This document shows positions 33,029-56,070 of a DNA stretch of 64,000 nucleotides, piece after piece (position 1 is the stretch's first letter; every line of letters starts with the position of its first letter). The stretch lies in NCBI GenBank assembly GCA_051313645.2, contig JBNRSN020000021.1, forward strand, positions 37,882,001-37,946,000, in the 5' to 3' direction. The position numbers were made by a program, and so were the translations under genes. The notes beneath the pieces are model-generated. The model saw nothing but the letters and a program-made list of their open reading frames with translations. It was not told where the DNA came from and ran no database searches. The DNA is from Centroscyllium fabricii. Its lineage: Eukaryota.

Positions 33029-34599
33029 GTAATTACATCAAAACAGTCTTGCAACCTTCAATCAATGTCATTTTGATATTGTTTTTAAATGCTTTGGAAT
33101 GGTTTCATTTCAGGTGAGGCTGTAACATACATAAAAGTGGTAAATGGTAGGGACCAACGAAACAGCTTTCACTTAATCTAGGGATGCAGAGGACATCAAT
33201 AAGACACTCGAGTTGTACGCTTGTGAATTATGGGGGAACAATTTGGTTGCTTGTGCCAGCCGTTAGCGCCCTAGGAGAGAGGCGGTAACGTCAATCGCTG
33301 TGGGCAGCGCCCTGCTTGCGCCCCGGCCGCGATCTTCAGTCGCGCCCCCTGATTTACCGCTGGATGCTATGACCGACAGGATCAGGGGGGCGTACTTGCA
33401 GCCGGGGGAGCGCAAATTAAGGCAGAGGTGCCGGGCGGCCATTTTTGTTGCTGGTCACCTGCCAGCATCTGCCCCCTTTGCCGTCCCCGGCCTCCTGACC
33501 AGCACCCCCCCCACTAACCAGCACCCCCCCGCAGAGTGCCGACTGCGCTCCGTGAGCCCGGCACTTCTCTCGAGTGCCGGGCTCTTTTGCTGGCACTCTG
33601 ATCCCCAGTGGCCCACCGGGTCACGCTGCGCAAAGGCCCCTCCCCTTTAAGAAGGGTGTGGTGTATGGACAACATACACCTATGTACTGATGATGCGAGA
33701 CTCTACCTCGGCATCACCCCTCTATATCACCCCGGTGCTATACGATGGCCTGTGCCTTTAAGGATGGTGCTGGGCACTGCATCATGTGATGTTACCAGGC
33801 TGCAGTACCCTTACCAGCCACTGTCATGTGTATATAAGCTCGCATGTGTAGTTCCTGTTCAGTCTTCCATTAGTCCTCAGTCCTCGATGAGTTCGCTATT
33901 AGTCCTGTACTAGACTAGGCTCTAAGCTAATGTAAATATGTTGGCGCGAGAAGCGCCACGGGTTAAGTTGTGATTTTACCATGCCAGTAAACATCACCCA
34001 GTTGAGAACTTAACTTGAGTCTGTCGTTATTTGCCTCGTAATAACCTTAGACTTAACAATGGTGATAGATTTAACAGTGGCGATGAGATCAATCGAACGC
34101 ATAGCTGTGCATTCGGCCACACTAGCGGAATGAGGAGAGTTCTTACCGGAACAGATCCATCAACGGCTAAGGCACACCCTGCTCCTCGAGTCTAGGAGGG
34201 GCAGCGTTTTGAAGGAGGAACTCGGAGGCCTACACACTGAAAGGAGTGTGGCGAGGTGCTCAAACGAGATCCAGCAGCAGCTTACAGCAGACAGAGAAGC
34301 TCAAGACAGAAACCTGCAGATCAACACCGGCGATCACCAGCAGCAGCCTTCAGCGGACGGCGACAGCAGCCAGAGCAAGCCCCACAGCGACCTGCATAGT
34401 AAGGCAACAGCAGCCAGCAGAGCTCCGCAGGGGTGGGGGGGGGGAGAGAAGGCCAGCAGAAATCGAGGTCCAGATCCAGCAGCAGGGAGACCCGAGGTGA
34501 GAAATTGCTGACCAGACCGTAGGGGGGAAAATAATTTTTTTTTAAAACCCCGCGGGGAAGCGGCACTAGGGCGGGAAACGCATTGTTGCCGCGAAAATG

Positions 34600-34988: not shown

Positions 34989-36444
34989 ATGGGGGAAGAA
35001 GAAAACAGAGACAGAGGAACGCCCAGCAGATTTGGGACCTTTCAGCCTGAGAAAGAAGACTGGGAATCGTACTTAGAACGATTCGACATACACTGCGAGG
35101 TGCAGACAATAGCTGAAGGTAACAAATTAAAGGTTTTGTTAAATTCTCTAGGACCCGAAGCATACGGGTTATTGCAAACACTGGTATCACCCACGAGAGG
35201 GGATAAATCTGCCCACGAGGCCGCTGCAGGAGGAGCAGCTCAGATAAGGAACAGTGGTGGTTGTGTAAAAGCCCACAAGACTACCTGGCACAAGAAAAGG
35301 TGCTTCAGGTGTGGCAAGACCACACACGCCCAGAACAAGTGCTGGGCCAAAGATAAAGATTGCTGGCAGTGTGGCAAGACGGGCCACATTGCAGCGGTAT
35401 GCTGGTCCGGGAAGCTGACAAAAGGACCAAGAAGACAAAACTGTAAACAGGGCAGGGCCAAGAAGGTCCACGGGATTACAGAGGAAGGTTCAGGGAGTGA
35501 ACCAGAGAACCAGGGCAAAGAGCACTGGGGGCTAGGAAGCCTAACGGTCCATAACATGGGTATACAATCGGACCGGGACCGGAAGATTATGCGGATTCCC
35601 CTCAAGGTGGCAGGGGTACCCATATCAATGGAGCTCGACACAGGGTCAGCTCTGTCCGTAATAAGTGAACGGTTTTATAAGAAAACCTTTAAGGGGATTC
35701 CCCTAGAACAGTTACCCGTAATTTGTAAAACATATACGGGACAGAAGTTAAGGACTTTGGGTCGGTTAGCCGTCTCAGTGAAGTACGAAGGCAAGCAGAC
35801 TAAAGGCCTCTACCTGTACGTACTGGAAGATGGTGGAACACCACTCTTGGGACGTGAATGGATGAAGAAAATCAATATAGATTGGAACTCTACCCAGGAT
35901 TTACACATCAAGGGTGAAGAAAAGAGTACAGCCACGTCGGACAGACTGGAGATACACCAGAGACATATCTCTCGTCTGACTCAGGGGCTGAAGGAAGCCC
36001 GAGACCAAATTGAGTTGTTGTGGACTGCACAAAACGAGCGGAAGCATCAACACATCGGATCACGGTTGTACGGAGCACTTCAGACAACTGAAGGAGGAAC
36101 AGTGAGTGAACTGTTGCCTTACGGTGCTGGACTGAGTTACGCACCTCCATTACGGATATCGGCAAGCACCCCAGACACAGAAAGGGGCTGCAAGGACTTG
36201 GCTAGCAATAGCCAGAGGCCATTAGTCGACTCTAAAGCTACAGTGGCTGCTTCGCAGGACAGAAATGAGTCACTGGAGGAGATGCACAAAGAAATGAACC
36301 AACTCAAGTCGCAGATGCAGGAGTTGCTTGAAACAAACAAGGTACTGCAAGACGATCTGCACGAGGCCAAGGAACGAAATAAGGATCTCCAGACACAGCT
36401 GAGCTCCAAAATAACTGATTATGAGAGCAAAGTGGAGCAGCTCT
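34989..36444 (+). pseudogene. Element A gag-protease ORF with coiled-coil tail, interrupted by element B
   Basis: Gag N-terminus EDWESYLERF...LGPEAY, two zinc knuckles (CFRCGKTTHAQNKC, CWQCGKTGHIAAVC), protease LDTGSALS...LLGREW; the frame resumes at 54747. Confidence 0.8.
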
Positions 36445-36900
36445 TGTAACCTTCAATAACGTCCTCGGAGTCGAGTAGTAGGTTAGAACAATCAGGCTTT
36501 TATTCACTACACCTGGAACATGCACCAGCAAGTTGACTGTCCCCGGGAATGGCATGGGGGATGGGAGCAGTCACTTATATACCACCTCCTGCGGGGGAGG
36601 AGTCGTGGGCGGAGCCAACCTGGGCATGTCCCAGGTATCATCTCACAGTATAGTACAGTACAGGTATAGGTTACATCGTGATACATGGTAGTTAAATATA
36701 TACAAGTGATATACACGTTTATCACATTCACCCCTTCTTTAAAACGAAAGTACGGCGGGGTGAGAAGACTAATAATTACAAGTGAGAGAGAGGAAAAAAA
36801 TTATTTCTTTAAAACAAAGTTCTTTTGACTACAGATTGAGTCTTTCAGGCGGTCTGGTTGACCGCGTCGATCTTCACACCGCTGGTGGTGCCTGTGGTGT

Positions 36901-38327: not shown

Positions 38328-40171
38328 TGTAATTATTTGTTGCGAGCTATGGGGCACTATAACCTCATTCATGATGGGTCCGGGATCCCCATCCACGGTG
38401 TCGGGACCCCGCCTCGTCTCTCGAACCGGACACATGGGTGCTGTAAGGTCGCAATATTCCAAGTCAAAACGGATTTACAAAGACCAGAAACGAAGGGATG
38501 GAGTATACATGTTTCTTTTATTGTACAATGGCAGACAGGACAGGCTGCGGCCTGATCAGAGAAAAAGGGGCCTCCAAGATGGCCGCCGGACCACATGGCA
38601 TAGTGTAAAACGAAACCAAAACCCAATTCGGAAAAGCCCGCGAAGTAGCCAGACATGAAGGCGCTGTTAAACCTGTAAATAAGTAGCCAGCCCCTTAGAA
38701 ACCGCTCAGCCCCACAAAGAAATGCACCCAGTTAAATAAGCACCCGATAAAGCTGCAAATATTGAAATTACTGGCCGTTTAGCCAGACACAAGATTTACA
38801 CAGCAAGCCCGCATTAAAGCGATTAGCACCCTTGCAAAAACAATGGGGGCTCTAACGGAGAGGTTAGGGTGCCATCAAACCATTACCAGCAGGCTTGGCT
38901 GGACAAAGGAATGCAGTAACCGTTTTCAAAACACAATACCTGCCTAATGGGAAAGACATTAGCTTCACAGTATAACTGGCAGGACATTTCTACAATTCGC
39001 TCTCTTGGGATCTCTTCTTCATCTGTGGGCTCTCTGGAGAGGGCTCTCTTGGAAAGCGCTTGGAAACTCTTCACATCTCTGACTCTCTGGAAGAGGGGGT
39101 CTCTCGAATATCTCGCAGCGTGGAAATCTCTCTTGGGAAAGAGCTCTTGGAGAAGGCTTTTGGAGGCGACCTCTTGAAGCGGTGAGGTCCCTGAACTGAG
39201 CTTTAGCAGTAACTTTGGGTGGGCTCTCTGTTTTCGAAGACTCCAGTTCAGCTTTCTGGGTGCAGGGCAAGCAGGGTGCAGGCTCTGGCAGGACAGCAGA
39301 GTTGGGTCAGGGCAGTATCGCATCGGAAAACCATTGCTGGTGAGGTAGTTGGTTGTTGGGCCCCATTAGTAGCATCTTGTTGAACACGGCGATTAAGCTA
39401 GCGTCGGAAGAGTGGGAAAGCAAGTAGGCTAGCAGCCCGTTACAGTTCGGCTTGAGAGGGCAGGATCGGCATACCCCAGGGTCCGGTTCAGCCAGGGAGA
39501 CGGTGCGGTTGGTGCGAGGAGATAGAGCAGCCTCGAGGAACCCGTCCGGGACCAGCCCGAGCAGGAGCGACCGCCGCCCAAAGGGAGAAGACAACAAGTG
39601 GACTCCCGAATCTTCCACAGCCACGTGACGACCGACGCTGCAGCCGAGGAAACGAAGGACTTCGTAGCAGACCCCGAGTATTACCGAGTGGTGAGCATGT
39701 GCCTCGATCCTACACACCTGGACATAGCTAGGCAATAGAGGGAAGGGTGGTTTATTTGGGGTGTATTTGTAGAGTCATTGCCCCGATTTACGATGTGCCG
39801 TGCGTTCCCCATCCTATAAGTTACCTGTGTATGTGCATATATATATATATCTGTTTGGGAAACAATTGTTGGTGTATCATATTGTGTCGTTCCGATGAAA
39901 TACAACCTAACTGCTGTAAATATATCCTGTGGTGTAATAAAATCTTCCAACTTTGCAAACTTTTATTCGAGTCTAAATCTGAGTCCAATCGGTATCCATC
40001 TCGTCTCTCTCTTCTCCTGCACCTAAGTCCAGCGTCTAGAACCGTAAGGGTGAGCGATTCGAACCGCTCGCGGGGGAGGAGGTTATTGCGCGAGGCCTAG
40101 CGGACTGCTAGCGCAAGGCAGTAACGGACCCCAAGTCGTACATAAAATATACGGCGCACGCTCCTTACAGA

Positions 40172-42094
40172 ATGGCGACCGCGGCAGGACGTTGGCAGCA
40201 GGAGAGAGATATATTGGACTCAGCCTTGAATAAAAGAAGCGTAATGGAGGAAAGGATTGCTGATTATGTGTTCAGTAAGGTGAACTTAACAAAGCAGTGG
40301 ATTGGGGACCTGTTGGCAGACAAACGTCCACTGGATGCAGCTATCCGTTGGATGGGTAGCAAGGGGCATAAGAAAGCAGTAGAAAAAGCAGTATGGCTAA
40401 TGTGCTATAAAAGGCAGGTCCAGCTTTCGGACCAGGTGATTGCGGCGCAGACCGCGCAGATCAAGGGGTTAGTCCTAGAAGTGGAGGAAAAGGTCTCAGA
40501 GGGGCAGCGGTTAATCACCGCGCTAGAGGCTCTGAATAATGAGCGCCAGGTGAAGACCAACCGCCATGAAGCTAGGGTTGAGCTCCTAGAAAGACAAGTA
40601 GTAGAGGCCATGTCAAGTGAAGGGAAGCTCAGGGAAAGGTGCGTCCGCCTAAGTGGCCAATTGAAGGCACAGGAGGAGGATTTACTGGGGATGAGGGCAG
40701 CGTACAAAATGTCCCTTGAGACCAAATATGAGGACGCCGATCATGGCGCTTGTTTAAAGGAGATTCAGGACCTTAGGGAGGCCCTGAACAGGTCAAACGG
40801 TCTGGTGTGCCTCATCGACCCATCGGTGGGTGAGGTAAAGGTGGTTAAGGAACCCCCGAAGCCAAAGCTAAGGAGGAGGGCGCCGGAGGCACCAGCCCCC
40901 GCGCTCCCCGCGCGATCACCCCACTATACGCAAGCATGGGAGAAAGGGGACAGAGAGGAGGTGGCGGCGAAGGTTCCCAAAATGGGGAATCCAGACCCGG
41001 CACCCATGTGTCCGGTTCGAGAGACGAGGCGGGGTCCCGACACTGCGGCTGGGGATCCCGGGCCCATCTTGAATGAGGTCATAGTGCCCCATAGCTCGCA
41101 ACAAATAAGGAGCATGATAGGGCATTTTAGGAAGCTGTCCGCAGCAGGCGATCCGTCCCTGCATTTTAGGGAGGTCGAACAGGCAGCAGCGGTAAACGGC
41201 TGTGACGAAGGAGAGCAAGCCAGGATGTTGCTTTTCTCTTTAGATAGCTCTATCCTTCAGTGTCTCTCCGACGAGAGCAAGAGGGGGGATAAGGGCTATG
41301 ACGACCTACGGGATGAGGTCTTAGAAGTGCTGGGAATGGACGATGAAGGTCCGTTTGTAAGGCTGGGTAGGACCGTGCAGATGGAGGGAGAACCCCCACG
41401 GGTTTTCGCCGGGAGGCTGTGGCCTGTGTATCAGCGCAGCTGCCCAGATGTACCTGCACGGGCTGTTTTGCGCGATGCCGGGAGAGCCCAGTGGCTCCGG
41501 TGTTTAGTTGCCAACAGCCTACCCGCCGTTAGAGAGCAGGCTAAGGTGTGGTTTGACCCCACCGATGCTCAAACCACAGAGGAGATGGTCCTCAACCGAC
41601 TCACGGTTGGGTACAAAAACACGAGGAGTTTGGTGATGCACTGCGATAAGGGGAAGGTGTATGCGACTAACGCAGACGCCCCAGCGCAGAGAGAGTGGTA
41701 TCAGGAGGGGGGCAACCCGGGGCAGTCTACATGTCATAGATGCGGGAAGGCAGGCCACTGGCGCAGAGACTGTAGAGCCCCGTGGAGGGAGGTCAAGGAA
41801 AGAGCTCCCGCAGCCCCAGCCCGAGCACCCACTCCCACAGGAGGTGCCGGCGCCACTCTAAGTCCCGAAACAATTGAGTCCATGCTGGAAGCCATGAAGT
41901 TTTATATGACTTCCCAGGGGAAGGTAGCCCCAACCCGAGCACCCGCTCCCACAGGAGGTGCCGGGGCGACTTTAAGTCCCGAAACGATAGAGTCCACGCT
42001 GGGGGCCATGAAGTTGTATATGGCTTCCCAGGGGAAGGCAGCGGTGGCCACCGGTTCCGCAGGCACCGCAGCCCCTCACGTGGAAGCCCAATGA
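40172..42094 (+). CDS. Element C Gag (640 aa)
   Basis: Coiled-coil N-terminal region, CCHC knuckle CHRCGKAGHWRRDC, 38-aa C-terminal duplication; homologous to element D gag. Confidence 0.88.
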   Translation: MATAAGRWQQERDILDSALNKRSVMEERIADYVFSKVNLTKQWIGDLLADKRPLDAAIRWMGSKGHKKAVEKAVWLMCYKRQVQLSDQVIAAQTAQIKGLVLEVEEKVSEGQRLITALEALNNERQVKTNRHEARVELLERQVVEAMSSEGKLRERCVRLSGQLKAQEEDLLGMRAAYKMSLETKYEDADHGACLKEIQDLREALNRSNGLVCLIDPSVGEVKVVKEPPKPKLRRRAPEAPAPALPARSPHYTQAWEKGDREEVAAKVPKMGNPDPAPMCPVRETRRGPDTAAGDPGPILNEVIVPHSSQQIRSMIGHFRKLSAAGDPSLHFREVEQAAAVNGCDEGEQARMLLFSLDSSILQCLSDESKRGDKGYDDLRDEVLEVLGMDDEGPFVRLGRTVQMEGEPPRVFAGRLWPVYQRSCPDVPARAVLRDAGRAQWLRCLVANSLPAVREQAKVWFDPTDAQTTEEMVLNRLTVGYKNTRSLVMHCDKGKVYATNADAPAQREWYQEGGNPGQSTCHRCGKAGHWRRDCRAPWREVKERAPAAPARAPTPTGGAGATLSPETIESMLEAMKFYMTSQGKVAPTRAPAPTGGAGATLSPETIESTLGAMKLYMASQGKAAVATGSAGTAAPHVEAQ

Positions 42095-45000
42095 CTAAGA
42101 CCCGCGCTGCCCATTTACCTGTGTCCGCTCCGTTATGATGCATGGAGGAGACCTCTGGTGGAAATGGAGGTGGAGAGACAGGAGGGGAATTATCTGTTGG
42201 ATACGGGGGCCTCATGCACCGTGATCCACACAGAGAAGCCGTTTAATTCCCCAATGTCCACCGGAGTCCCTTTTGCATTAGCAGGGTTTATGGGCAAGGA
42301 ACAGGGGGGCGCGCGCTCTAGGCCACTCTCCGTTCAGTTAGGAGCGCTCCACACCACTTGGGAGTGCATCCTGCTGAAATGGGAAGAAGGAGGTGGCAGA
42401 GGTATAGTAGGAGCAGATTTTCTGGGAGCACACGGGATCATGATCGACCTAAGGAACCACTGTTTATGGGCAGCCGAAAGTGGAAGAGGTGAAGTTGTGG
42501 TCATAGGGGAGGAAGAAGAGAAGGGGACCCTATGTACCGTGAAGCCGGCCGGAGGTTACGACCTCGATAGTTTGTCCAAGGGGGTTCCGGCCGACATGCA
42601 GGCGGCCGTAACGTGTAATATAAACGCCTTTGCGACCCACAAGCACGATTGTGGGAGGGTCTTAGGGTTTGAGGTTAGCATACAGGGGCATCCCATGTCC
42701 CGACCCTAGAAACAGTATAACTTCCCTAAGGAAGCGGAGTCCGATCTGGAGACAGCGATGTCTTCACTGGTGCGGCAGGGCGTGTTGAGGCCGATAGCCA
42801 CCCATGTGAACTCTCCGTTGTGGCCCGTACGGAAGCCAGACAACTCATGGAGAGCCACGGTGGATTATCGGGTCCTCAACAGTAACATCCCCGCCTGCGC
42901 GCCCACGGTGGCAGCAGTTGCCGACCTGATCGGGAGTATTCCCGCTTCCGCCACGGTGTTTACGGTGTTGGATATTTCCAACGGGTTTTGGTCCATCCCG
43001 CTGCGGAGGGAGGATCAGTACAAGTTTGCCTTTACGTTTAAAGGGCAGCAGTACACGTGGAATTGTTTGCCGCAAGGCTTCCACAACAGCCCCAGTATTT
43101 TCCACCAGTGTATGGCAGGGAGTTTAAAGGAGTTTAGTCAGCCCAATCAGATAGTGCAGTATGTGGACGACTTACTCCTGTTCACGGACACGAGGGATGA
43201 GCACTTGCCATTGCTAGGCGAGCTGCTGGAATTACTGGCTAGGAAGGGTTTCAAAATAAACCCGAAGAAGGCACGGATTGGCCAGACAGAAGTAAAATTT
43301 CTGGGTTTGACCATCCGCGCGGGGGAAAGGGCCATAGATAAGGCCAGGAGGGAGTCGGTACAGGAGCTACCGATCCCGACCACCGTAAAGGGTGTGAGGT
43401 CCTTTTTGGGATTGACCGGGTATTGCAGAGACTTCATTGAGGACTATGCTGCCACAGCAGCTCCGCTGCTCCGACTCTTACATAAGGGAGTTGGGTGGTC
43501 ATGGGATGAGGGCTGCCAGGCGGCGTTTGAAAAGTTGAAGAGGGACTTGCAAACCGCGCCAGCCCTGGGGGCCATAGAGGGGGGGAAGGAGTTTTCCTTG
43601 GAGCTAGCAGCCGGCGAGGACAGCTTGAGCGCGGTGCTGCTCCAAGAGCGGCACGGCAAGCTGCGACCGGTGGTGTATTCCTCAAGGGTACTCACGGAGG
43701 TGGAGAGGGGGTTCTCCAACTGCGAACGGCATCTTTTAGCCACGCATTGGGCCGTGAAGAGATCATTAATCTTCACGGGAACCTCTCCCATTACTCTCCT
43801 CACCCACCACACACCCACCAGGATGCTCCTGGATGGGAGGATAAAGGATGGGACCGTGAGCAGCGCGAGAATTGCGCGCTGGACTCTTCTTTTGTCCCAA
43901 ATGGATTTAAAGGTGGAGGGTTTGTGCGAGCCTAAGCACGCAGCAAATTTGATGTACCCCGGAACGACCCATCGGTGTTCCGTGGAGGGGGTATGGGAGG
44001 TGAACATAGGTCTGCGAGCCGGGATACATCCCACGGGCCGCGAGATCTATGTTGATGGTTCCAGCACGGTGGTGGCTGGCGAACGACTCACGGGCTGCGG
44101 GATTTTTGACCCTAAGGCAGACATTGCCTTGGCGGTTAAGCTTCCCCGCACCATGAGCGCGCAGCAGGCCGAGCTGTCGGCGGTGGCGTACGTGGTAACC
44201 CACCCCGAGACCTTCCCAACCCCGTACACAATTTGCTCCGATAGTATGTTTACGTGCAACTCGTGCACGGAGTATCTGGCCATATGGTCACGTCGCGGGT
44301 ACACTTCCGCGGACGGGCGGCCATTAACGGTAAAGCCCTTGTTGGAGAAGATCCTAGCGGCAGTAGGGGAAGAAGGGGAGATCTTCATCCACAAGGTGAA
44401 GGCTCACTCTTCCACGGAACCACGTGGGGGAGGCAATCAGCGGGCGGATGCGCTGGCCAAGGAGGGTGCTCGGGAAGGCACTTTCTGGGACCCCTACGGG
44501 TCCGGACCTGTGGCAGCGATCCGGGATAAGGAGGGGAATCGCCCCAGGGTTCCCCTGCCTTTGGATCTCAAAATGGTCCAAAACCAGGATCCCGTTTTAA
44601 AAGCTGTCCTCAAAGCTATTAGTGAGGACAAGCAGGTAGAGGGCCCATACAATAGGGCGACCCTCTCCGTTAAGGAAGGAATGTTGTTCAGGGAGGAACA
44701 GTGGGTTGTGCCGCAGCAGCACAGGAGGGAATTTCTCCAATTGGCCCACGAGGGTCCAGGAGCAGGGCACCCCGGGCCAGAGGTTACGTGGCAACGGGTG
44801 GAGCAGGCAGGGTGGTGGCCGGGACTCAGGGAAGATGCCCGCGAGTTCTGCGCCAGCTGCCTGGTGTGCGCTGCGAACAACCCAGACCCCCAAAGGAGGA
44901 AAGCGCAGATGGGGCACGTCAGGAGGGTGGAGGGACCGTGGCAGTCGATACAAGTCGACTATATAGGGCCCCTACCCACCGCCCAGGGAGGCTATAAATA

Positions 45001-46735
45001 TTGTCTCGTCCTGGTGGACGTGTTCTCCAAATGGGTAGAAGCTTTCCCCTGTAGGACGGCTACGGCCTTAGGTACTGCCAGGATTTTGGTCCGGGAGGTG
45101 TTCTCACGGTGGGGACTTCCCCGTTTTGTGGAGTCCGACCAGGGGAGTCACTTCACCGGCCAGGTCATGCAGAACACCCTCATGCTCCTAGGCATTGAAG
45201 GGAAATGGCACGTAGCGCACAACCCCCAGTCGTCAGGGATTGTGGAACGCATGAACCGTACCCTTAAGGAACGGTTGAGGAAAGAGGCGATGGGCTCGCC
45301 CCAGAAATGGGCGGAGATCCTGCCTTTAATCCTCATGGGGATCAGGGCCAGCCAGTCGAAAAGTACGGGATATTCCCCGCACGAGCTAATGACTGGAAGG
45401 GCCATGCGGACCCCCACTCATGTACTAGCTCCGGTGCTCACGGAAGGACAGCTCGAGGAGGTAAAGAAGGACAGGTTTGCCCAAAATCTGTTCGAGCACC
45501 TAAAGCGAGTACACGAGCAGGCAGCAGGGAACATGGGCAGACAGCATCAGGGGAACAAGCTGTTGCTGGAGCCCCGAAGAACGCAAGAATGGGAAGTGGG
45601 AGACCTGGTCATGGTGAGGAACTATGCCCGGGTCGGGAGTTTAGAGCCACTGTACATGGGGCCCTACAGCATTGTAGATAAGGCAAGCCCCATGGTTTAT
45701 GCGGTGAAGGTGCCCCGACGCACAAAGTGGTTTCATATAAACCAATGTAAAATGTATAAGTCGGGCACGCAGGGGTCGACCACAGGGGCAAGCCCTGTGA
45801 GTAGGAACGCCCAGCCAAGTGCAGGACCACAGGTCGCGCAGGCAGGTAAAGTAGCCTGCGTGAGAGGAGAGGCCCCGATGGAGGAGAGGAGGGTCTCTCG
45901 TGCTGTGTGGGATTCAGATGGGGAGGAGCCGGACCAACACGACCAAGTGTTGGATCCGATGGACCAACACGACCAAGTGTTGGACCCGATTGGCCAACCC
46001 GACCAAGGGTTGGACCTGATTGACCTACGCGACCCAGTGCTAGAGTCAATCACAGGGGAGGAGGAGGGGTCTGAGGACGGGGGTTCCGTTCTCGACTCGA
46101 ATGCCGACGAGGTAGGGATAGCGGGCGGAGACTCACCACCTGAGGAGATAGGTGAGGTGAGGTCAGAAGCCGCAAGAGATCCCAGTCCCGGGGAAGCGAA
46201 GCTGAAGGAGGGAGGGTCGGTGCTGGCAGCTGTGAAGGAGTCACAGGCTGCAGCACGATCCGGCCCGGCCTTCAGTTCGTCGACGAGGCGAGAGGAGGGA
46301 GCGTCGATGCGTGCAGATGTGACGGGGTCACAGGCTGCAGCACGGCCTGGCCCGGTCCTCAGGTCGTCGGCCCAGGGGGCTCTCGGTCCCAGGGAAGCGA
46401 AGCTGGAGGGAGAGGGGTTGGTGCTGGCAGCTGTGAGGGAGTCACAGGCTGCAGCACAACCTGGCTCGGTCCTCAGTTCGTCGGCCCAGGGAGCAGTACC
46501 TAAAGGCACCCTCCGTCGATCGGAAAGGGTACCCCCGCCCAGGAAAGCTTGGCCAGAACCGTCATATGCCCTCAGGTACAGGAAAAGCCCCCGCAAAAGG
46601 ATAATTATCCACCCCCGACAAGCAGCGCCAGGCTGCGGAGAATCAAAAGCAGCGACAGGCTGCGGGGAACCAAAGGGAGGGGTCAGCAATGCACCGCCAC
46701 GGGGAGCGGCCCACTACGACCCTGACAGGGGATAG
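42095..46735 (+). CDS. Element C Pro-Pol (protease, RT, degenerate RNase H, second RNase H, integrase, GPY), in frame with gag; one internal TAG at 42707-42709
   Basis: LLDTGAS; NSPLWPVRKPD, LDISNGFW, LPQGFHNSP and YVDD; IYVDGSS...AQQAEL...SDS...KVKAH...GNQRAD; HHCC, QVDYIGP, ESDQGSHF, SSGIVERMN and GPY. Confidence 0.9.
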
Positions 46736-49358
46736 GTAGGCCGCCCGGGAGAGGCGGCACTGTATATAATGAGAAATAAGTTTGGTAGTGTCAAGGGAGT
46801 AGCCCGAATTAATTTTTGAATTTTGTTAAAGGTGTGACGTTTAGCATAAAGGTGAAGGGGAGTGTTTAGGTAATATGGGATCTGTCCAGGAGGCGTGCAC
46901 ATCTCACCACAGCCAGGCGCTCTTGGGAGGCCGGCAACCCCTTTGTTTAATTACAGAACCCAGAGAGGCGGGGATTCTGATGACGCTTGCGGTCATCAAA
47001 GATGGACTGGCCTGTCGGGGCCACACCGGGGAGTAAGGAGCAGATGCCCAGGGCGGCTGGGAACGGACCCAATGGAGCATCCCAGCACGTCGGAATCTGC
47101 TTGTGGAGAGACTTGGTTTTCTGTGCCCCGGATCGAGACCATCGCACCCAGGACCGGCGCTATCATCGGTAGAAGGACTTACTTCCGTTGAGGGATAGGA
47201 AGATCCCAGCGAGCCGATGGTGGTGGCTGCGGAAGACCGCCAGAACACTGTAAAAACTTTGGGACAAATGGGGGGATTGATGAGGGGAGATATGTGTGCT
47301 TTATATTTTCCGGATGGTTGTGTGATGTCTCTGTCAGATAATAAATGATATGAACAGGTGGAGACGAAGGCATCGGCCTGGCAGACGTGGAAGGAACCAG
47401 GAGGTGTAAGGAATGGTTGTGTAAATATACATGGTTGTGTAAATATACGTTGCCCAGGGTAAAGGCAATGCGAGGTTGATCAAAGGGAATGGGAACCGCA
47501 TGTGTCATGGGGCAAGAGTTAATTTAGGTAACCAGGAGAGTTGAGGTGTGGAGAATCGGGAATCTTGCTCAACCTTTATTAATTGATTCGCTAAGCGGGG
47601 TTATGCTAATCAACAGGAGGGACTGTAAGGTCGCAATATTCCAAGTCAAAACGGATTTACAAAGACCAGAAACGAAGGGATGGAGTATACATGTTTCTTT
47701 TATTGTACAATGGCAGACAGGACAGGCTGCGGCCTGATCAGAGAAAAAGGGGCCTCCAAGATGGCCGCCGGACCACATGGCATAGTGTAAAATGAAACCA
47801 AAACCAAATTCGGAAAAGCCCGCGAAGTAGCCAGACATGAAGGCGCTGTTAAACCTGTAAATAAGTAGCCAGCCCCTTAGAAACCGCTCAGCCCCACAAA
47901 GAAATGCACCCAGTTAAATAAGCACCCGATAAAGCTGCAAATATTGAAATTACTGGCCGTTTAGCCAGACACAAGATTTACACAGCAAGCCCGCATTAAA
48001 GCGATTAGCACCCTTGCAAAAACAATGGGGGCTCTAACGGAGAGGTTAGGGTGCCATCAAACCATTACCAGCAGGCTTGGCTGGACAAAGGAATGCAGTA
48101 ACCGTTTTCAAAACACAATACCTGCCTAATGGGAAAGACATTAGCTTCACAGTATAACTGGCAGGACATTTCTACAATTCGCTCTCTTGGGATCTCTTCT
48201 TCATCTGTGGGCTCTCTGGAGAGGGCTCTCTTGGAAAGCGCTTGGAAACTCTTCACATCTCTGACTCTCTGGAAGAGGGGGTCTCTCGAATATCTCGCAG
48301 CGTGGAAATCTCTCTTGGGAAAGAGCTCTTGGAGAAGGCTCTTGGAGGCGACCTCTTGAAGCGGTGAGGTCCCTGAACAGAACTTTTGAGCTTTAGCAGT
48401 AACTTTGGGTGGGCTCTCTGTTTTCGAAGACTCCAGTTCAGCTTTCTGGGTGCAGGGCAAGCAGGGTGCAGGCTCTGGCAGGACAGCAGAGTTGGGTCAG
48501 GGCAGTATCGCATCGGAAAACCATTGCTGGTGAGGTAGTTGGTTGTTGGGCCCCATTAGTAGCATCTTGTTGAACACGGCGATTAAGCTAGCGTCGGAAG
48601 AGTGGGAAAGCAAGTAGGCTAGCAGCCTGTTACAGTTCGGCTTGAGAGGGCAGGATCGGCATACCCCAGGGTCCGGTTCAGCCAGGGAGACGGTGCGGTT
48701 GGTGCGAGGAGATAGAGCAGCCTCGAGGAACCCGTCCGGGACCAGCCCGAGCAGGAGCGACCGCCGCCCAAAGGGAGAAGACAAGTGGACTCCCGAATCT
48801 TCCACAGCCACGTGACGACCGACGCTGCAGCCGAGGAAACGAAGGACTTCGTAGCAGACCCCGAGTATTACCGAGTGGTGAGCATGTGCCTCGATCCTAC
48901 ACACCTGGACATAGCTAGGCAATAGAGGGAAGGGTGGTTTATTTGGGGTGTATTTGTAGAGTCATTGCCCCGATTTACGATGTGCCGTGCGTTCCCCATC
49001 CTATAAGTTACCTGTGTATGTGCATATATATATATATCTGTTTGGGAAACAATTGTTGGTGTATCATACTGTGTCGTTCCGATGAAATACAACCTAACTG
49101 CTGTAAATATATCCTGTGGTGTAATAAAATCTTCCAACTTTGCAAACTTTTATTCGAGTCTAAATCTGAGTCCAATCGGTATCCATCTCGTCTCTCTCTC
49201 TTCTCCTGCACCTAAGTCCAGCGTCTAGAACCGTAAGGGTGAGCGATTCGAACCGCTCGCGGGGGAGGAGGTTATTGCGCGAGGCCTAGCGGACTGCTAG
49301 CGCAAGGCAGTAACGGACCCCAAGTCGTACATAAAATATACGGCGCACGCTCCTTACA

Positions 49359-50178
49359 GTGCCGGGTCCGGATCCCCTACTCTGGGAACCTTCGCCGCCA
49401 CCTCCTCTCTGTTCTCTTTCTCCCATGCTTGCGTATAGTGGGGTGATCGCGCGGGGAGCGCGGGGGCTGGTGCCTCCGACGCCCTCCTCGGCCTTGGCTT
49501 CGGGGGTTCCTTAACCACCTTTACCTCACCCACCGATGGGTCGATGAGGCCATTTGACTTGCTCAGGGCCTCCCTAAGGTTCTGGATCTCTGTGAGACAG
49601 GCGCTATGATCAGCGTCCTCATACTTAGTCTCGAGGGACATTTTATATGCTGCCCTCATTCCCAGCAAATTCTCGTCCTGTGCCTTTAATTGGCCACTTA
49701 GGCGGACGCACCGTTCCCTGAGCTTCCCTTCACTCGACATGGCCTCTACCACCTGTCTCTCTAGGAGCTCAACCCTTGCCTCATGGCGGCTGGTCTTCAC
49801 CTGGCGCTCTCTATTTAGAGCCTCGAGTGCGGTGATTAACTGCTGCCCCCCTGAGACCTTTTCCTCTACTTCGAGTACTAACCCTTTGATCTGCGCGGTC
49901 TGCGCCGCAATCACCTGGTCCGAAAGTTGGACCTGCCTTTTATAGCACATAAGCCATACCGCCTTCTCCACTGACTTCTTATGCCCCTTGCTACCCGTCC
50001 AACGGATAGCTGCGTCCAGTGGACGTTTGTCTGCCAGCAGGTCCCCAATCCACTGCTTTGTCAAGTTAACTTTGCTAAACACATAATCGGCAATTTTCTC
50101 ATCCATCTGGTTCCTCTTATTCAAGGCTGAGTCCAACACATCTCTTTCCTGCTGCCAGCGTCCCTTCGTGGTCGCCAT
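49359..50178 (-). pseudogene. Element D gag N-terminal part
   Basis: MATTKGRWQQERD... aligns with C Gag; broken at PDPA|PMCPV by the insertion of C. Confidence 0.88.
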
Positions 50179-51917
50179 TTCTGTAAGGGGTGTGCGCCGT
50201 GTATTTTATTCACGACTTGGGGTCCGTTACTGCCTTGCTCTAGCCGTCCGCTAGGCCTCGCGCAATAACCTCCTCCCCCGTGAGCGGTTCGAATCGCTCA
50301 CCCTTACGGTTCTCGACGCTGGACTTAGATGCAGGAAGAGAGATGAGATGTATAATGATTGGACTCAGATTGACTTTGAATAAGGGTTTCAAAAATTGGA
50401 TGATTTTATTACAGTGAGACGTAGGTTCATATACAGCAGTTAACTTGTACGTCATATAACAAAACACAGTATGAAATACAAACTTCGTAGCCCAATTATA
50501 TATATATATATATGCGAATACATGAATAACTTATAGGATGGGGAACACACGGCACATCGTAAATTGTGGCAAGCACTCTATAAATTCAACCAAGTAAACC
50601 ACCCTCCCCTCTATTGCCTAGCTATGTCCAGGTGTGTAGGATCAAGGCACATGCTCACCACTCGGTAATACTCGGGGTCAGCTACGAAGTTCTTCGTCCT
50701 TTCGGCTGCAGCGTCGGTCGTCACGTGGCTGTGGAAGATTTGGGAGTCCACTCGTTTGCTTCTCCCTCTTGGCGGCGGCCGTGTCTGCTCAGGCTGGCCC
50801 TGGGCGGGTTCCTCAAGGCTTCTCTACCTCCTCGCACCAACCGCACCGTCTCCCTGGCTGAACCAGACCCTGGGGTATGCCGATCCTGCCCTCTCGAGCC
50901 AAACTGTAACAAGTCTTTTTCGAACTCACTCGCTTTTACCCATGCATCGAACGCCAGCCCTTGTGGTGCCAGACAACCGACTATCTCTCCAGCGATGGCC
51001 CAGCCCAGATGCGATGCCACTGCCCTGCCGGAACCTGCACCCTGCTCGCCCTGCACTCTGCTCGCCCTGCACTCTGCTCGCCCTGCACCCAGAGATCTGA
51101 ACGGGAGTCTTCGAAGGGAGAGCCCACCCAAAGTCACTGCTAAAGTTCAAGAAGTCCTTCAAGTTCTGCAAGAGAACTCTACCTAGTTCCAAGAGCTTCC
51201 CAAGAGCTCCAACCGCTTCCAAAGAATCCGAGATCTGAGCGCTAGAGACCTCACCGCTTCAAGAGGTCGATTCCAAGAGTAAAGTCAGCCCTCTCCAGAG
51301 AGCCCGCGGAAGAAGAAGAAGAGAAGAGATCGAACTGTAAAATGTCTAACAGTTATACTCAGAAAAATGTTGTGCCTAATGTCTTTCCAATCATTGCCAT
51401 GTATTGTCCCATTTCAAAACGGTAACTGCTTCTTTGTCCAGCTAACCTGCTGAAATGGCTTGAGAGCAGCCCTAACCGCTTCTGTGAGCGCTGCATTATC
51501 TAAAGAGGGTGCAAATCGCTTCTGCTAAGTTTGCTGTGCAGTTTCTAAGCCTGGCTATTTAGGGCCAGTTAGTCCATATTTGCGATATATTGGGTGTTTA
51601 TTCTCTGGGTGCAATTTCTTTGTTGGGCTAAGCGGTTCTGAGGGGAGCTGGTTAGTTCTTTACAATCGAATACTGGGTCTTGGCGCCCCCAAGTCTGGGT
51701 TTTCGCGCACTTTCTGCAAGGCTTTGAAAATATATATGTGGTTTCGTTTTCGGCTCTGGCCGTTAGGTCATGTGGTCCGGCGGCCATCTTTTGAGGCCCC
51801 TTTTCTTTGATCAAGCCGCAGCTTGTTTCTCTGCTGCTAATAAAAAAATGCTGAATCCATCCATCTGTCTCTGGTCTTTATGAATCCTTTTTAACTTGGG
51901 AATATTGCGACCTTACA

Positions 51918-54437
51918 CCGGCCAGGTAGTGCTTCCAATGCCGCACTGCTTCAACAATGGCCTGGGCCTCCTTTTCGACTGAGGAGTGATGGGTCTCGGG
52001 GCCCTGGAGGGTACGTGAAAAGGAGGCCACGGATCTGCCCGCCTGGTTAAGGGTGGCGGCCAGGGCAAAGTCTGATGCATCGCTCTCTACCTGAAATGGG
52101 ACGGACTCATCCACAGCGTGCATCGTGGCTTTTGCAATATCGTTTTTAATTCTGCAGAACGCCGAGTTGGCTTCTGCAGAAAGGGGAAAAGAGGTCGATT
52201 TAAGTAGTGGGCGAGCTTTGTCCGCATAATTAGGGACCCACTGGGCATAATAGGCGAAAAATCCCAAACACCGTTTAAGGGCTTTGGGGGAGTGGGGGCG
52301 GGGGGGGGGGGGTGAGCTCCATGAGGGGGCGCATGCGGTCCGGGTCTGGACCGATGACTTCATTCTCCACCACGCTGCCGAGGATGGCCAGGCGGCCGGT
52401 GCTAAATACACATTTCTCCTTATTGTACGTTAAGTTCAGGGTTTTGGCCGTGTGGAGAAATTTTTGGAGGTTGGCGTCATGGTCCTGCTGATCATGGCCG
52501 CAGATGGTCACATTATCAAGATACGGGAAAGTGGCTCGCAGCCCGTACTGATCAACCATTCGGTCCATCTCCCTTTGGAAGACCGAGACCCCATTCGTGA
52601 CGCCAAACGGCACCCTAAGGAAGTGGTAGAGGCGACCGTCAGCCTCGAAGGCTGTATAAAGACGGTCCTCTGGGCGGATGGGAAGCTGGTGATAAGCCGA
52701 TTTAAGATCGATCGTGGAGTACACTTTAAATTGGGCGATTTGGTTCACCATGTCCGCTATCCGGGGGAGGGGGTAGGCATCTAGTTGCGTGAACCGGTTT
52801 ATGGTCTGGCTGTAGTCCACAACCATCCGGTTCTTCTCTCCGGTTTTTACTACCACTACCTGCGCTCTCCAGGGGCTATTACTGGCCTCTATGACCCCCT
52901 CTTTTAGGAGGCGCTGCACCTCAGATTTTATAAATGCCATGTCCCCAGCACTGTAGCGCCTACTTTTGGTGGCGACGGGCTTGCAGTCTGGTGTGAGGTT
53001 GGCAAAGAGGGATGGAGGGGCAACCTTAAGGGTTGAGAGGCCACAGGTAGTGTGCTGGGGGTACCGCCTTGAGCCGCGGTTTCTGACCGTGAGTGAGGGA
53101 AGGGGTCCGCCAAATGCCATCGTAACGCTCTGGAGGTGGCACTGGAAATCCAGTCCCAGGAGTAGGGGGGCGCAGAGCTGCAGCAGCACGTAAAAACTAA
53201 AATCGTTAAACATTGCGCCCTGGACATTAAGTGTTACAATGCAGCGCCCGGTGACGTCAGCAGATTCCGACTTGGACGCCATAGATATTCTCTGGCGCGC
53301 AGGGATTACTCTAAGGGAGAGGCGCTTTACAGTACTTTGGTTTATAAAACTTACTGTGCTCCCGCTGTCGAACAGGCACACCACCTCTTTACCGTTGATT
53401 TCCACCGGCATCATAGATTTCTCCAGCGGTTGAGTCTTCCTCTGGTCTATGATCATTGATGCTAACACCGGGTCCTCCGAGTTGTCTTGATCCGGATAGT
53501 AGTCCTCCGAGTTCGCTCCCCAAGATGGCTGCCGCCATGTGGTGTACTGTGGAGGTGGAGGCTGAGTCCAAGATGGCCGCTGTTGCTGCTGCTGCTGCCA
53601 CGAGGGATACTGAGTGGGGGATGGGTGAGCCCAATATGGCTGCTCCCATGTTCCACACGCGGCGCTACCCAGTTTTGATTTAATGCTAGTGTTTTTACAG
53701 ACCTTCGCATAATGTCCTTTCTTGTCGCATTTCGAGCAGGTCGCTTCTCTAGCAGGGCAGCTGCGTCTTGAGTGCTGAGATTGTCCACAGAAGTAGCATT
53801 TGGCTGCCGTTTTCGCGTGGGCAGCTGTGATTAGTTCTTCTGCCGGTCGTTGCGCCGGTACTGTCCAAGATTGCGGGGCTGGGCCTGTATAGTTACTTGA
53901 GTATGAGGATAAGTCCGTTGAGGCCCTATCCAGCGTGTGCCCCAAGTCTGTAGTCGCCTGTAAGTCCTGGCCGTTCTGCTCCAGCAGTCTCTGCCTGACA
54001 TAGTCCAATTTTAAGCCTGTTACGTAAGCGTCTCTGATGAGGCTGTCTACATGGACTAGGGCCGTTAGCGCTCTGCAGTCACAGTCCCGCGCCAGTACTC
54101 TGAGGGCTCTTAGGAACTCCACACTTGACTCACCGGTTTGTTGCTTTCTGGTGGCGAGTAAATGTCTAGCGTGGACTACATTTGGTGCCCGATTGTACTC
54201 CGTCTCGAGAATCCTGATGGCCTCTTGGAACGATGGGGCGTCCACTATCATCGAGTACACCTGAGGGCCCACCCGGGTGTGGAGGAGTCGCCGTTTTTGC
54301 TCTTCAGTCACTATGACCGCTGCATTGGCTCTGAGGTACCCTTCGAGCACATTGCGCCAGTGTGAGAAGGTGTTCGATGCTCCTGATGATCGGGGATCCA
54401 ATTCGAACACTGCTGGCTTGAGCATCGTGGTATCCAT
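51918..54437 (-). pseudogene. Element B gag-pol 5' part (Gag, protease, RT, start of RNase H)
   Basis: Two CCHC knuckles, FDSGS, SPWRAQVVVV, DLKSAYHQ, PFGVTNG, YLDN and VESDASD; frameshift in a poly-C run near 52300; broken at HYLAG by element D. Confidence 0.9.
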
Positions 54438-56070
54438 TTTTAACAGTAGTGAATAAAATTGTAACCTTCAATAACGTCCTCGGAGTCGAGTAGTAGGTTA
54501 GAACAATCAGGCTTTTATTCACTACACCTGGAACATGCACCAGCAAGTTGACTGTCCCCGGGAATGGCATGGGGGATGGGAGCAGTCACTTATATACCTC
54601 CTCCTGCGGGGGAGGAGTCGTGGGCGGAGCCAACCTGGGCATGTCCCAGGTATCATCTCACAGTATAGTACAGTACAGGTATAGGTTACATCGTGATACA
54701 TGGTAGTTAACTATATACAAGTGATATACACGTTTATCACAGCTCTCAACTGAACTTAAGGAGAAACTGGCTGTAATGGAGCACGAGAATGAGCTATTGG
54801 TGGAAGGGAAGGCGGAGTTGGAAAAAAACGTGATCGTATGATTGCTCAACTCGGGAAAATGGGTTGGTCGGAGGGGACAGCTGGAGAGCAAGGCTATCCA
54901 GAGACGACTGACGCTGAATGGCTTGGAAGCCACGGCTACCAGGTTGCTGATGAAAGCGATGGAAGCCATACAGTCGAGGAACCGACCACGAAAACAAAGA
55001 AACAACACCGTCGGAGAAACACGAGAAAGCATTGAATGTTTAAATTGTTAATAATGTTAGAGTGTTCAAATGTAGAGTAGAAGAAACTAGAGAAAGTTAA
55101 ATGTTAAAATTGTTTACAATGTTAGAACATTCAAATGTATATAGTGAATGCACCATGTTAAGGAAGTGTACAGGGTGACAAATGTACGTTGAATATTGTT
55201 GTATGAAAAAGGTTATACTGAGTTGAATGGGTTAAAAATGATGGTGAGCGACTAGCTAGCATCGAACAATGTATGTACAAAAGTTAATTGTTATATTTCT
55301 GAGTGTACTTATCATCGTACCCGTACGATTGAATTAGGAAGGGAGGAATGTGGTGTATGGACAACATACACCTATGTACTGATGATGCGAGACTCTACCT
55401 CGGCATCACCCCTCTATATCACCCCGGTGCTATACGATGGCCTGTGCCTTTAAGGATGGTGCTGGGCACTGCATCATGTGATGTTACCAGGCTGCAGTAC
55501 TCTTACCAGCCACTGTCGTGTGTATATAAGCTCGCATGTGTAGTTCCTGTTCAGTCTTCCATTAGTCCTCAGTCCTTGATGAGTTCGCTATTAGTCCTGT
55601 ACTAGACTAGGCTGTAAGCTAATGTAAATATGTTGGCGCGAGAAGCGCCACGGGTTAAGTTGTGATTTTACCATGCCAGTAAACATCACCCAGTTGAGAA
55701 CTTAACTTGAGTCTGTCGTTATTTGCCTCGTAATAACCTTAGACTTAACAATGGCGATAGATTTAACAAAGGGGAGGAAGGCCTGCATTACCACGTCGCG
55801 ATGTGCCGCAGAGCGTGGCGCTGCAGCATGCAATGCTAAGATATTCAGTCGCAGCACCCCAGGAAAGAGTGAGTGCTTCCAGTAGCGCCCCGCATCCTGC
55901 TTAGGGTGCTACAGCTGAATTTGCGGCACAACGGCGCTAACTTTTGCCGAGGTTAGCACGACTCAATTTTCCCCCCACAATGTTTACTGAACCAAGATTA
56001 AATGATATCCATGTTATCCACCCACAATTATCCCGGTTTCTAAATATATACATATTGTATTAATGCCTAC

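Follow-up and report, generated by a model that had tools for sequence, protein, structure and literature searches.

A primer-binding site that overlaps the likely gag start codon and is probably rewritten by host tRNA-Arg(UCG) in an endogenous retrovirus-like family of cartilaginous fishes

Introduction

HIV and MLV copy the 3' end of their tRNA primer into one strand of the primer-binding site (PBS), and the copied letters are inherited about 50:50; Ty1 and Ty3 inherit the PBS strictly (PMC7472051). PBS reversion and switching between Lys3 and Lys1,2 sites are described for the mouse ETn/MusD elements, for which 50:50 inheritance is only speculated in that source (PMC7472051). Here and below, published systems are compared as they appear in the accessible parts of the cited texts. 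In this study, we analyzed two related elements, C and D, within a window of 64,000 nucleotides from Centroscyllium fabricii (assembly GCA_051313645.2, contig JBNRSN020000021.1, positions 37,882,001 to 37,946,000 of the forward strand), to which all coordinates refer. In these elements no leader separates the PBS from gag, and our analysis of copies throughout the genome makes it likely that the 3' ends of host tRNA-Arg(UCG) replace the PBS as blocks and thereby rewrite Gag residues 4-6.

HIV-1, MLV, ETn and MusD share with the C/D family an 18-nt PBS, PBS classes that are scattered over the element tree, and an explanation in terms of tRNA-copied inheritance. Their PBS lies in the 5' untranslated region (UTR), 2-4 nt past the long terminal repeat (LTR), whereas that of the C/D family coincides with the start codon and codons 1-7 of gag. 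Because the PBS lies inside these codons, each switch alters the protein, unlike a switch in a 5' UTR. Ty1 has its PBS inside GAG as well. Its priming signals lie in the GAG region and its 5' UTR has only 53 nt (PMC3592414), but this copia-type element, with integrase before reverse transcriptase (RT), uses a 10-nt tRNAi-Met PBS that lies off the AUG and is strictly RNA-inherited, so that its tRNA does not recode Gag (PMC3592414, PMC7472051). The C/D family differs from this type in its repeated block switches and in its domain order, which is RT, RNase H, RNase H, integrase and not that of copia. SERV resembles the C/D family in having two PBS classes (Lys3 and Lys1,2) that are mostly tied to genotype, cross-over copies, and a suspected minor isodecoder (Lys5); that work covers 81 proviruses, compared with more than 11,700 junctions here, and no overlap of PBS and gag start is described in its accessible text (PMC8775094).

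Other endogenous retroviruses (ERVs) share parts of the coding layout of element C. Odin and the lokiretroviruses have a dual RNase H, as C does, and Odin also lacks env; neither main text mentions the PBS (PMC9040795, PMC7947760). XtERV-S, a class III ERV of frogs, resembles C in that gag and pol are in frame across a TGA and in having a tether and an RNase H domain, but it has a 158-bp leader between PBS and gag and carries env (PMC8278194). Snakehead retrovirus (SnRV) likewise differs from C by a non-coding stretch between PBS and gag and by the presence of env (PMC12193657), and SnRV-like ERVs occur in the elephant shark (PMC4422223). A literature search that left most subscription papers and repeat databases outside its scope returned no title or abstract on a gag-start-overlapping PBS that is rewritten by its primer, and the phrase 'PBS overlaps' was absent from the 20 papers listed in one part of it.

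Results

The PBS of elements C and D and its host tRNAs

The 5' LTR of element C (38442-40169, plus strand) is followed by the spacer GAA (40170-40172), the final A of which is also the A of the gag start codon, ATG1 (40172-40174). The T and G of this codon are positions 1-2 of the 18-nt PBS (40173-40190), which encodes most of Gag codons 1-7, and the gag open reading frame (ORF) that begins here (40172-42094) encodes 640 amino acids starting with MATAAGR. In element D, on the minus strand, the LTR ends at 50182 and is followed by the spacer GAAA; the A of the ATG is at 50178, the PBS extends from 50177 to 50160, and Gag starts with MATTKGR. GAAA and GGAAA are the spacers of the other lineages. 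The PBS thus begins at the T of the gag ATG in C and D, and all that the preliminary description had noted in the sequence was recovered.

The C-type and D-type PBS differ at positions 9, 12, 13 and 14. The reverse complement of each is identical to a host tRNA-Arg(TCG) 3' end, in which 15 nt encoded by the gene are followed by CCA (locus L038 for C, L041 for D), which agrees with the earlier proposal that both 18-mers match tRNA-Arg(UCG) isodecoders. When we searched the host genome for tRNA 3' ends with a T-loop anchor, we found the C-type end, the complement of which is carried by element C, at 83 loci and the D-type end at a single locus, while reversed-pattern controls gave 0. ARAGORN, with introns allowed, called 10 of 11 examined loci tRNA-Arg(TCG) and one ambiguous. 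The predicted duplexes of PBS and tRNA have energies of -41.5 and -37.8 kcal/mol for the cognate pairs and -28.0 and -26.8 kcal/mol for the crossed pairs, in which the first 8 pairs are perfect; thermodynamics therefore permits cross-priming and gives it no direction.

Several features of the tRNA genes were seen alongside. Many C-type genes lie in arrays with a spacing of about 1.9 kb (G000 contigs C811 and C922), and 8 of 10 examined C-type tRNA-Arg(TCG) genes (from the set L031-L040, L239, L241) have an intron of 16-18 nt; to our knowledge, introns in tRNA-Arg(TCG) are unusual among vertebrates. The D-type tRNA has a single locus, yet the D-type PBS dominates one lineage and occurs in a skate relative. 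A tRNA-like 3' end at G000:C1377:128155477-128155504 matches the one-letter intermediate PBS of copies L021 and L088, possibly by chance. Another family with an apparent overlap of ATG and PBS (MGALT..., L012, L017 and L029) was set aside, as no long ORF follows its ATG.

The start of Gag

Downstream of the PBS, codons 8-24 (40193-40243) separate ATG1 from a second in-frame ATG, Met25 (40244-40246, MEERI), which is a rival start. An intact PBS is preceded by A in 7,892 of 7,901 copies and by another letter in 9, across the three spacer lengths. We examined the start region in 219 copies, a set that is enriched for variants and not random. All 219 share an ATG1 context of purine at -3 and G at +4, which is in part an effect of how they were chosen. 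An upstream in-frame start was rejected for the C and D lineages, where every one of 179 copies has an in-frame stop at a distance of 9-25 codons before ATG1; among GGAAA copies, 39 of 40 have such a stop 6-68 codons upstream. In the whole set, in-frame upstream ATGs are sporadic (6/219). The stretch of about 230 nt between AATAAA (39936-39941), a candidate polyadenylation signal in the LTR of C, and the PBS is nearly free of ATG, with none in the last 230 nt of 142/179 copies. Upstream ATGs near this signal have no constant place or length, and the context of most is weak. Relatives with predicted N-termini share the start: 3 of 4 members of a skate cluster begin with MATTKG.WQQ and have Met25, and catshark and unnamed relatives with 33-43% identity begin with MATAAG.RWF and have Met26.

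Codons 8-24 show purifying selection in the gag frame. Of the recurrent changes in them, 18 are synonymous and 15 non-synonymous, where the neutral share would be 0.27 (p = 7e-4), and the ratio is 0.31 in the gag frame versus 1.3 and 2.6 in the other frames. An in-frame stop between ATG1 and Met25 occurs in 1 of 218 copies, compared with 218 and 211 in the other two frames.

The competing possibility is that the PBS is rewritten by tRNA but that Gag starts at Met25, in which case the overlapping ATG would be incidental or minor and no protein would be recoded. Several observations speak for such a start and against ATG1. Met25 is as conserved as ATG1, being kept in 218 of 219 copies and in the skate and catshark relatives; selection on codons 8-24 (about 0.31) is weaker than that on codons 26-42 (0.14), and RNA signals could constrain codons 8-24; residues 8-24 are divergent between families; and among the relatives, whose N-termini are gene predictions, P0049 lacks a MATxxG start and P0074 was called from an upstream ATG. 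ATG1, however, comes first, and its purine at -3 and G at +4 are present whichever of the three spacers precedes it. At Met25, 111 of 218 copies have a pyrimidine, C or T, at -3. No lineage without ATG1 amplified (9 versus 7,892 copies), the synonymous excess and the scarcity of stops are specific to the gag frame, and the distance between the first and second Met shifts by a whole codon in distant relatives. We consider a Met25 start unlikely. The upstream stops, the A before the PBS, purifying selection and the shared N-terminus suggest that ATG1 is probably the real Gag start, as had been proposed.

Exchange of PBS classes

The genome contains more than 11,700 LTR-PBS junctions, with 8,607 GAA, 1,680 GAAA and 1,457 GGAAA or GGAA spacers. 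We examined the first 100 junctions of each spacer group, all on one contig, and found the D-type PBS in 0 (GAA), 73 (GAAA) and 10 (GGAAA/GGAA) of them. Within the 219-copy set, the four diagnostic sites were all C in 103 copies and all D in 96; 19 copies departed from one of these states by a single letter, in 8 cases at a CpG site, and 1 was half-and-half. Replacement of one PBS class by another, including a third class described below, has taken place repeatedly and in either direction, each time as a block that is confined to the PBS.

Among the first 100 GAAA junctions, 72 combine D flanks with a D-type PBS and 20 combine D flanks with a C-type PBS; of the remainder, 6 have a C body plus an extra A, and the flanks of 2 are mixed. 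The switched share of the D lineage is thus 20/92, or 22% (95% interval 14-32%). In all 21 switched copies with D-type gag, the spacer is still GAAA and D letters persist at -8 or -10 and at +14, and the replaced tract is therefore no longer than about 32 nt. In a 90-row tree of D bodies, from which the PBS columns were removed and 5 long or chimeric rows and 6 C bodies were excluded, the PBS class needs 14 changes, at least 12 of them forced by starred branches (shuffled mean, 16.9). The reverse change is seen in the GGAAA lineage, where the D-type copy L212 is 98.5/97.5% identical to the C-type copy L222; a tree of 40 GGAAA copies, enriched for D-type, needs 6 changes, of which at least 5 are forced.

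Some results temper this picture. The samples are the first listed copies of one contig and are partly enriched for variants. An isolated C-like letter lies within 25 nt of the PBS in 11 of the 21 switched copies. Within the D lineage the classes are slightly clustered (13 of 500 shuffles were equally low), and there is one D-only clade of 22 above C-type rows, so not every switched copy represents an independent event. Across all lineages the PBS class is strongly linked to lineage, with 18 changes versus 59 after shuffling. The expectation that PBS variation falls into discrete tRNA-matching classes unlinked from phylogeny was hence borne out for the discreteness of the classes and, nearly, for their independence within the D lineage and, in the case of the third class, within the C lineage, but not across lineages. 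Similarly, the claim that the host isodecoder recodes Gag residues 4-5 at each cycle needs qualification. About 22% of D-lineage copies are indeed recoded, and residue 6 changes too (see below), but recoding is not free at each cycle: among the roughly 8,600 GAA junctions in the genome, 13 have a D-type PBS, and 0 of these 13 have a true C body (81-89% LTR identity to C, outside the C clade).

Recombination or gene conversion between coexisting C and D elements could also place a C-type PBS in a D body without any contribution of tRNA. The two lineages coexist in thousands of copies, chimeras exist (the 2 of 100 junctions with mixed flanks, and intermediate gag sequences among the 13 D-type GAA copies), and the excess of the C over the D lineage of about 5:1 would likewise bias the direction of exchange. 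Such exchange would, however, require two crossovers within about 32 nt in about 20% of copies, while other breakpoints are rare in the flank of about 800 nt that was compared. In the retroviral scheme, a single template switch between co-packaged RNAs would yield a U5/gag chimera and not the combination of D-type U5, C-type PBS and D-type gag. The adjacent spacer was not co-converted in the switched copies, and 21 switched cases are compatible with tract ends exactly at the PBS borders. For these reasons we regard recombination as quite unlikely to account for the switched PBS, and favor copying from the tRNA primer.

A third PBS class

A third class carries a G-to-C change at PBS position 15, which replaces glycine with arginine at Gag residue 6 (G6R), and occurs in two flank contexts, with 1,077 and 92 copies. 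It is present in all three lineages, including the D-like body L288 and the GGAAA copy L289; of 40 GGAAA copies, the one closest to L289 is D-type and differs from it at five PBS letters. On a variant-enriched tree of 99 rows, G6R requires 25 changes, at least 13 of them forced, versus 30 after shuffling. Three host tRNA-Arg(UCG)-type genes end in the exact complement of the G6R PBS; one of them is intact except for the resulting T-stem mismatch. These host gene matches and the recurrence in several lineages led us to drop the view that the position-15 variant is a plain lineage mutation. A point on the other side is that host tRNA genes are rich in single-letter variants (104 ends with one anchor, covering 15 of 24 transversion types among the 100 listed), and the G6R match therefore counts through its recurrence and is weak alone. 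We rejected an extension of the tRNA match to all single-letter PBS variants, as 6 of 7 observed transversion types have a match against this base rate of 15/24.

It is highly improbable that the PBS variants are recurrent point mutations favored by escape from silencing by 3' tRNA fragments, which has been proposed for ETn, MusD and IAP (PMC7472051) and for SERV (PMC8775094): the position-15 class did reach high frequency in one sub-lineage, but the C/D change affects four letters together with almost no intermediates, and each end state is a perfect complement of a tRNA, not a mismatch. Selection could still shape which PBS class spreads.

Element type and coding regions

Element C is bounded by a pair of LTRs that have TG...CA ends, and its target-site duplication is short, a Retroviridae-like arrangement. 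Comparison of the LTRs and element ends placed the left duplication, GTGC, at 38438-38441; the 5' LTR is 1,728 nt long and 99.0% identical to the 3' LTR (47624-49358), which is preceded by a purine-rich tract (47610-47623), a candidate polypurine tract. Gag is predicted to contain N-terminal helices with a coiled coil, a capsid-like domain and a CCHC knuckle. A fold search gave weak capsid matches only (best E 0.03), and in a fold model residues 4-36 form a single helix; the first ten residues are modelled with low confidence. The gag ORF ends in a TGA followed by CTA (42092-42097) in frame with the protease region, which we take to resemble a UGA-CUA readthrough signal.

The pro-pol region (42095-46735) encodes a protease-like region, RT, a tether RNase H, a second RNase H (PF17917/PF17919, then PF00075) and integrase, and in copy C it is broken by an in-frame stop at 42707-42709. 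About 300 pol residues with acidic and repeated segments extend beyond the integrase (45750-46735). On the plus strand of copy C, the region that follows pol, up to and including the 3' LTR, has no env-sized ORF, and none there exceeds 76 codons. A fusion-protein env (PF00523) is absent from copy C; a genome search for it gave no match, but its control matched nowhere either.

In a tree of 35 rows, built without labelled reference viruses, the RT falls into a starred 17-row clade with vertebrate ERV-like RTs, apart from Ty3/gypsy, and its nearest neighbors are unnamed and coelacanth proteins. Its best matches among solved structures, which we take from their entry codes to be gammaretroviral and foamy RTs, have E values of 4e-67 to 8e-49, versus 1e-40 for Ty3. 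One shark protein is 90% identical over one fifth of the query, and one shark match bears the source name 'protein NYNRIN-like'. Overall, we assign C and D to an endogenous retrovirus-like family that is found in cartilaginous fishes and is env-less in copy C. We did not adopt lokiretrovirus as a family name: the accessible supplement lists lokiretroviruses in 0 of 3 chondrichthyan genomes, and the motif LPQGF.NSP, common to the RTs of C and its vertebrate ERV relatives, differs by eye in the lokiretroviral RT stretch, which points away from this group (PMC7947760). Lokiretroviruses carry a fusion-protein env.

Neighboring insertions

Element D is a fragment on the minus strand, and C sits in its gag in the opposite orientation. 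What remains of D is the 3' part of a 5' LTR (50182-50911, about 86% identical to the LTR of C), the ATG and PBS (50160-50178; the PBS is the complement of the single-locus isodecoder) and the 5' part of gag (49363-50178), which is interrupted by C and has a further piece at 38333-38441. The insertions between 33657 and 55768 are nested, with C in fragment D, D in a Gypsy-like element B and B in a Gypsy-like element A. The LTRs of A are at 33657-34076 and 55349-55768, and those of B at 36444-36726 and 54459-54741. In A, a single letter separates the LTR from a TGGCGA-type site that has no A before it (34076-34095), and this neighbor lacks the ATG overlap. In B, on the minus strand, no TGG-type PBS follows the 5' LTR (54437-54459) and the ORF begins 22 nt downstream; this element might prime without tRNA.

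Discussion

We propose that the last A of the spacer and the UG of the PBS would form the Gag start codon on an RNA whose PBS encodes most of codons 1-7. The genome RNA would often be primed by a near-cognate isodecoder, given 8 perfect 3' pairs and about -27 versus -38 to -41 kcal/mol, and about half of the products primed in this way would fix the letters of the tRNA. As the PBS is codons 1-7, Gag residues 4-6 change along with it, and they would alternate among A-A-G, T-K-G and A-A-R. A switched share of 22% would need about twice that rate of cross-priming if all switched copies were fresh, but some are inherited from switched parents. The bias toward the C type probably follows tRNA supply (83 loci versus 1), with the counterpoint that gene number is not tRNA abundance. 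The recoding of Gag is most likely a tolerated by-product and not a regulated function; tolerance is expected because lineages with each form amplified.

The position of the PBS also makes the switch between translation and reverse transcription that had been proposed earlier geometrically possible, as the CCA end of the tRNA would pair with two bases of the AUG and with the G at +4. tRNA annealing occurs with Gag during packaging. Wherever in a scanned leader a tRNA is bound, it could hinder translation, and the overlap is therefore not needed for such an effect. A search for a special fold at the AUG region found none (z = -0.16), and the folds of five single copies disagree. A more far-reaching version, which we offer tentatively and hold to be doubtful, is that the overlap is an old selected device, maintained from skates to sharks, in which Gag-chaperoned primer annealing shuts off Gag translation on the RNA chosen for packaging and the host tRNA pool steers Gag variants in each lineage, with effects on element fitness. 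Such lineage effects may be exemplified by the clade of 22 that is exclusively D, by another that is exclusively C, and by the spread of G6R. If this were true, the annealed primer would cover two of the three AUG bases and codons 2-7, providing a one-site switch between mRNA and genome, and shifts in isodecoder expression over time would determine the Gag variant of a lineage, a heritable flow of information from tRNA to protein.

PBS switching itself is known from HIV, MLV, ETn and SERV; what sets the C/D family apart from these, and is well supported, is a coding PBS that is rewritten by tRNA. Through a textbook detail of retroviral replication, a host RNA that encodes no protein thereby comes to specify amino acids of a viral one. 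The more than 11,700 junctions are natural trials of primer choice, and their PBS classes record the use and timing of isodecoders in the germline. Hence, the C/D family could serve to test 50:50 inheritance at scale, and its PBS classes could test for the expression of rare tRNA genes, one of which has a mismatch in its T stem. Should the overlap gate translation as well, priming and Gag synthesis would be coupled in a very compact way.

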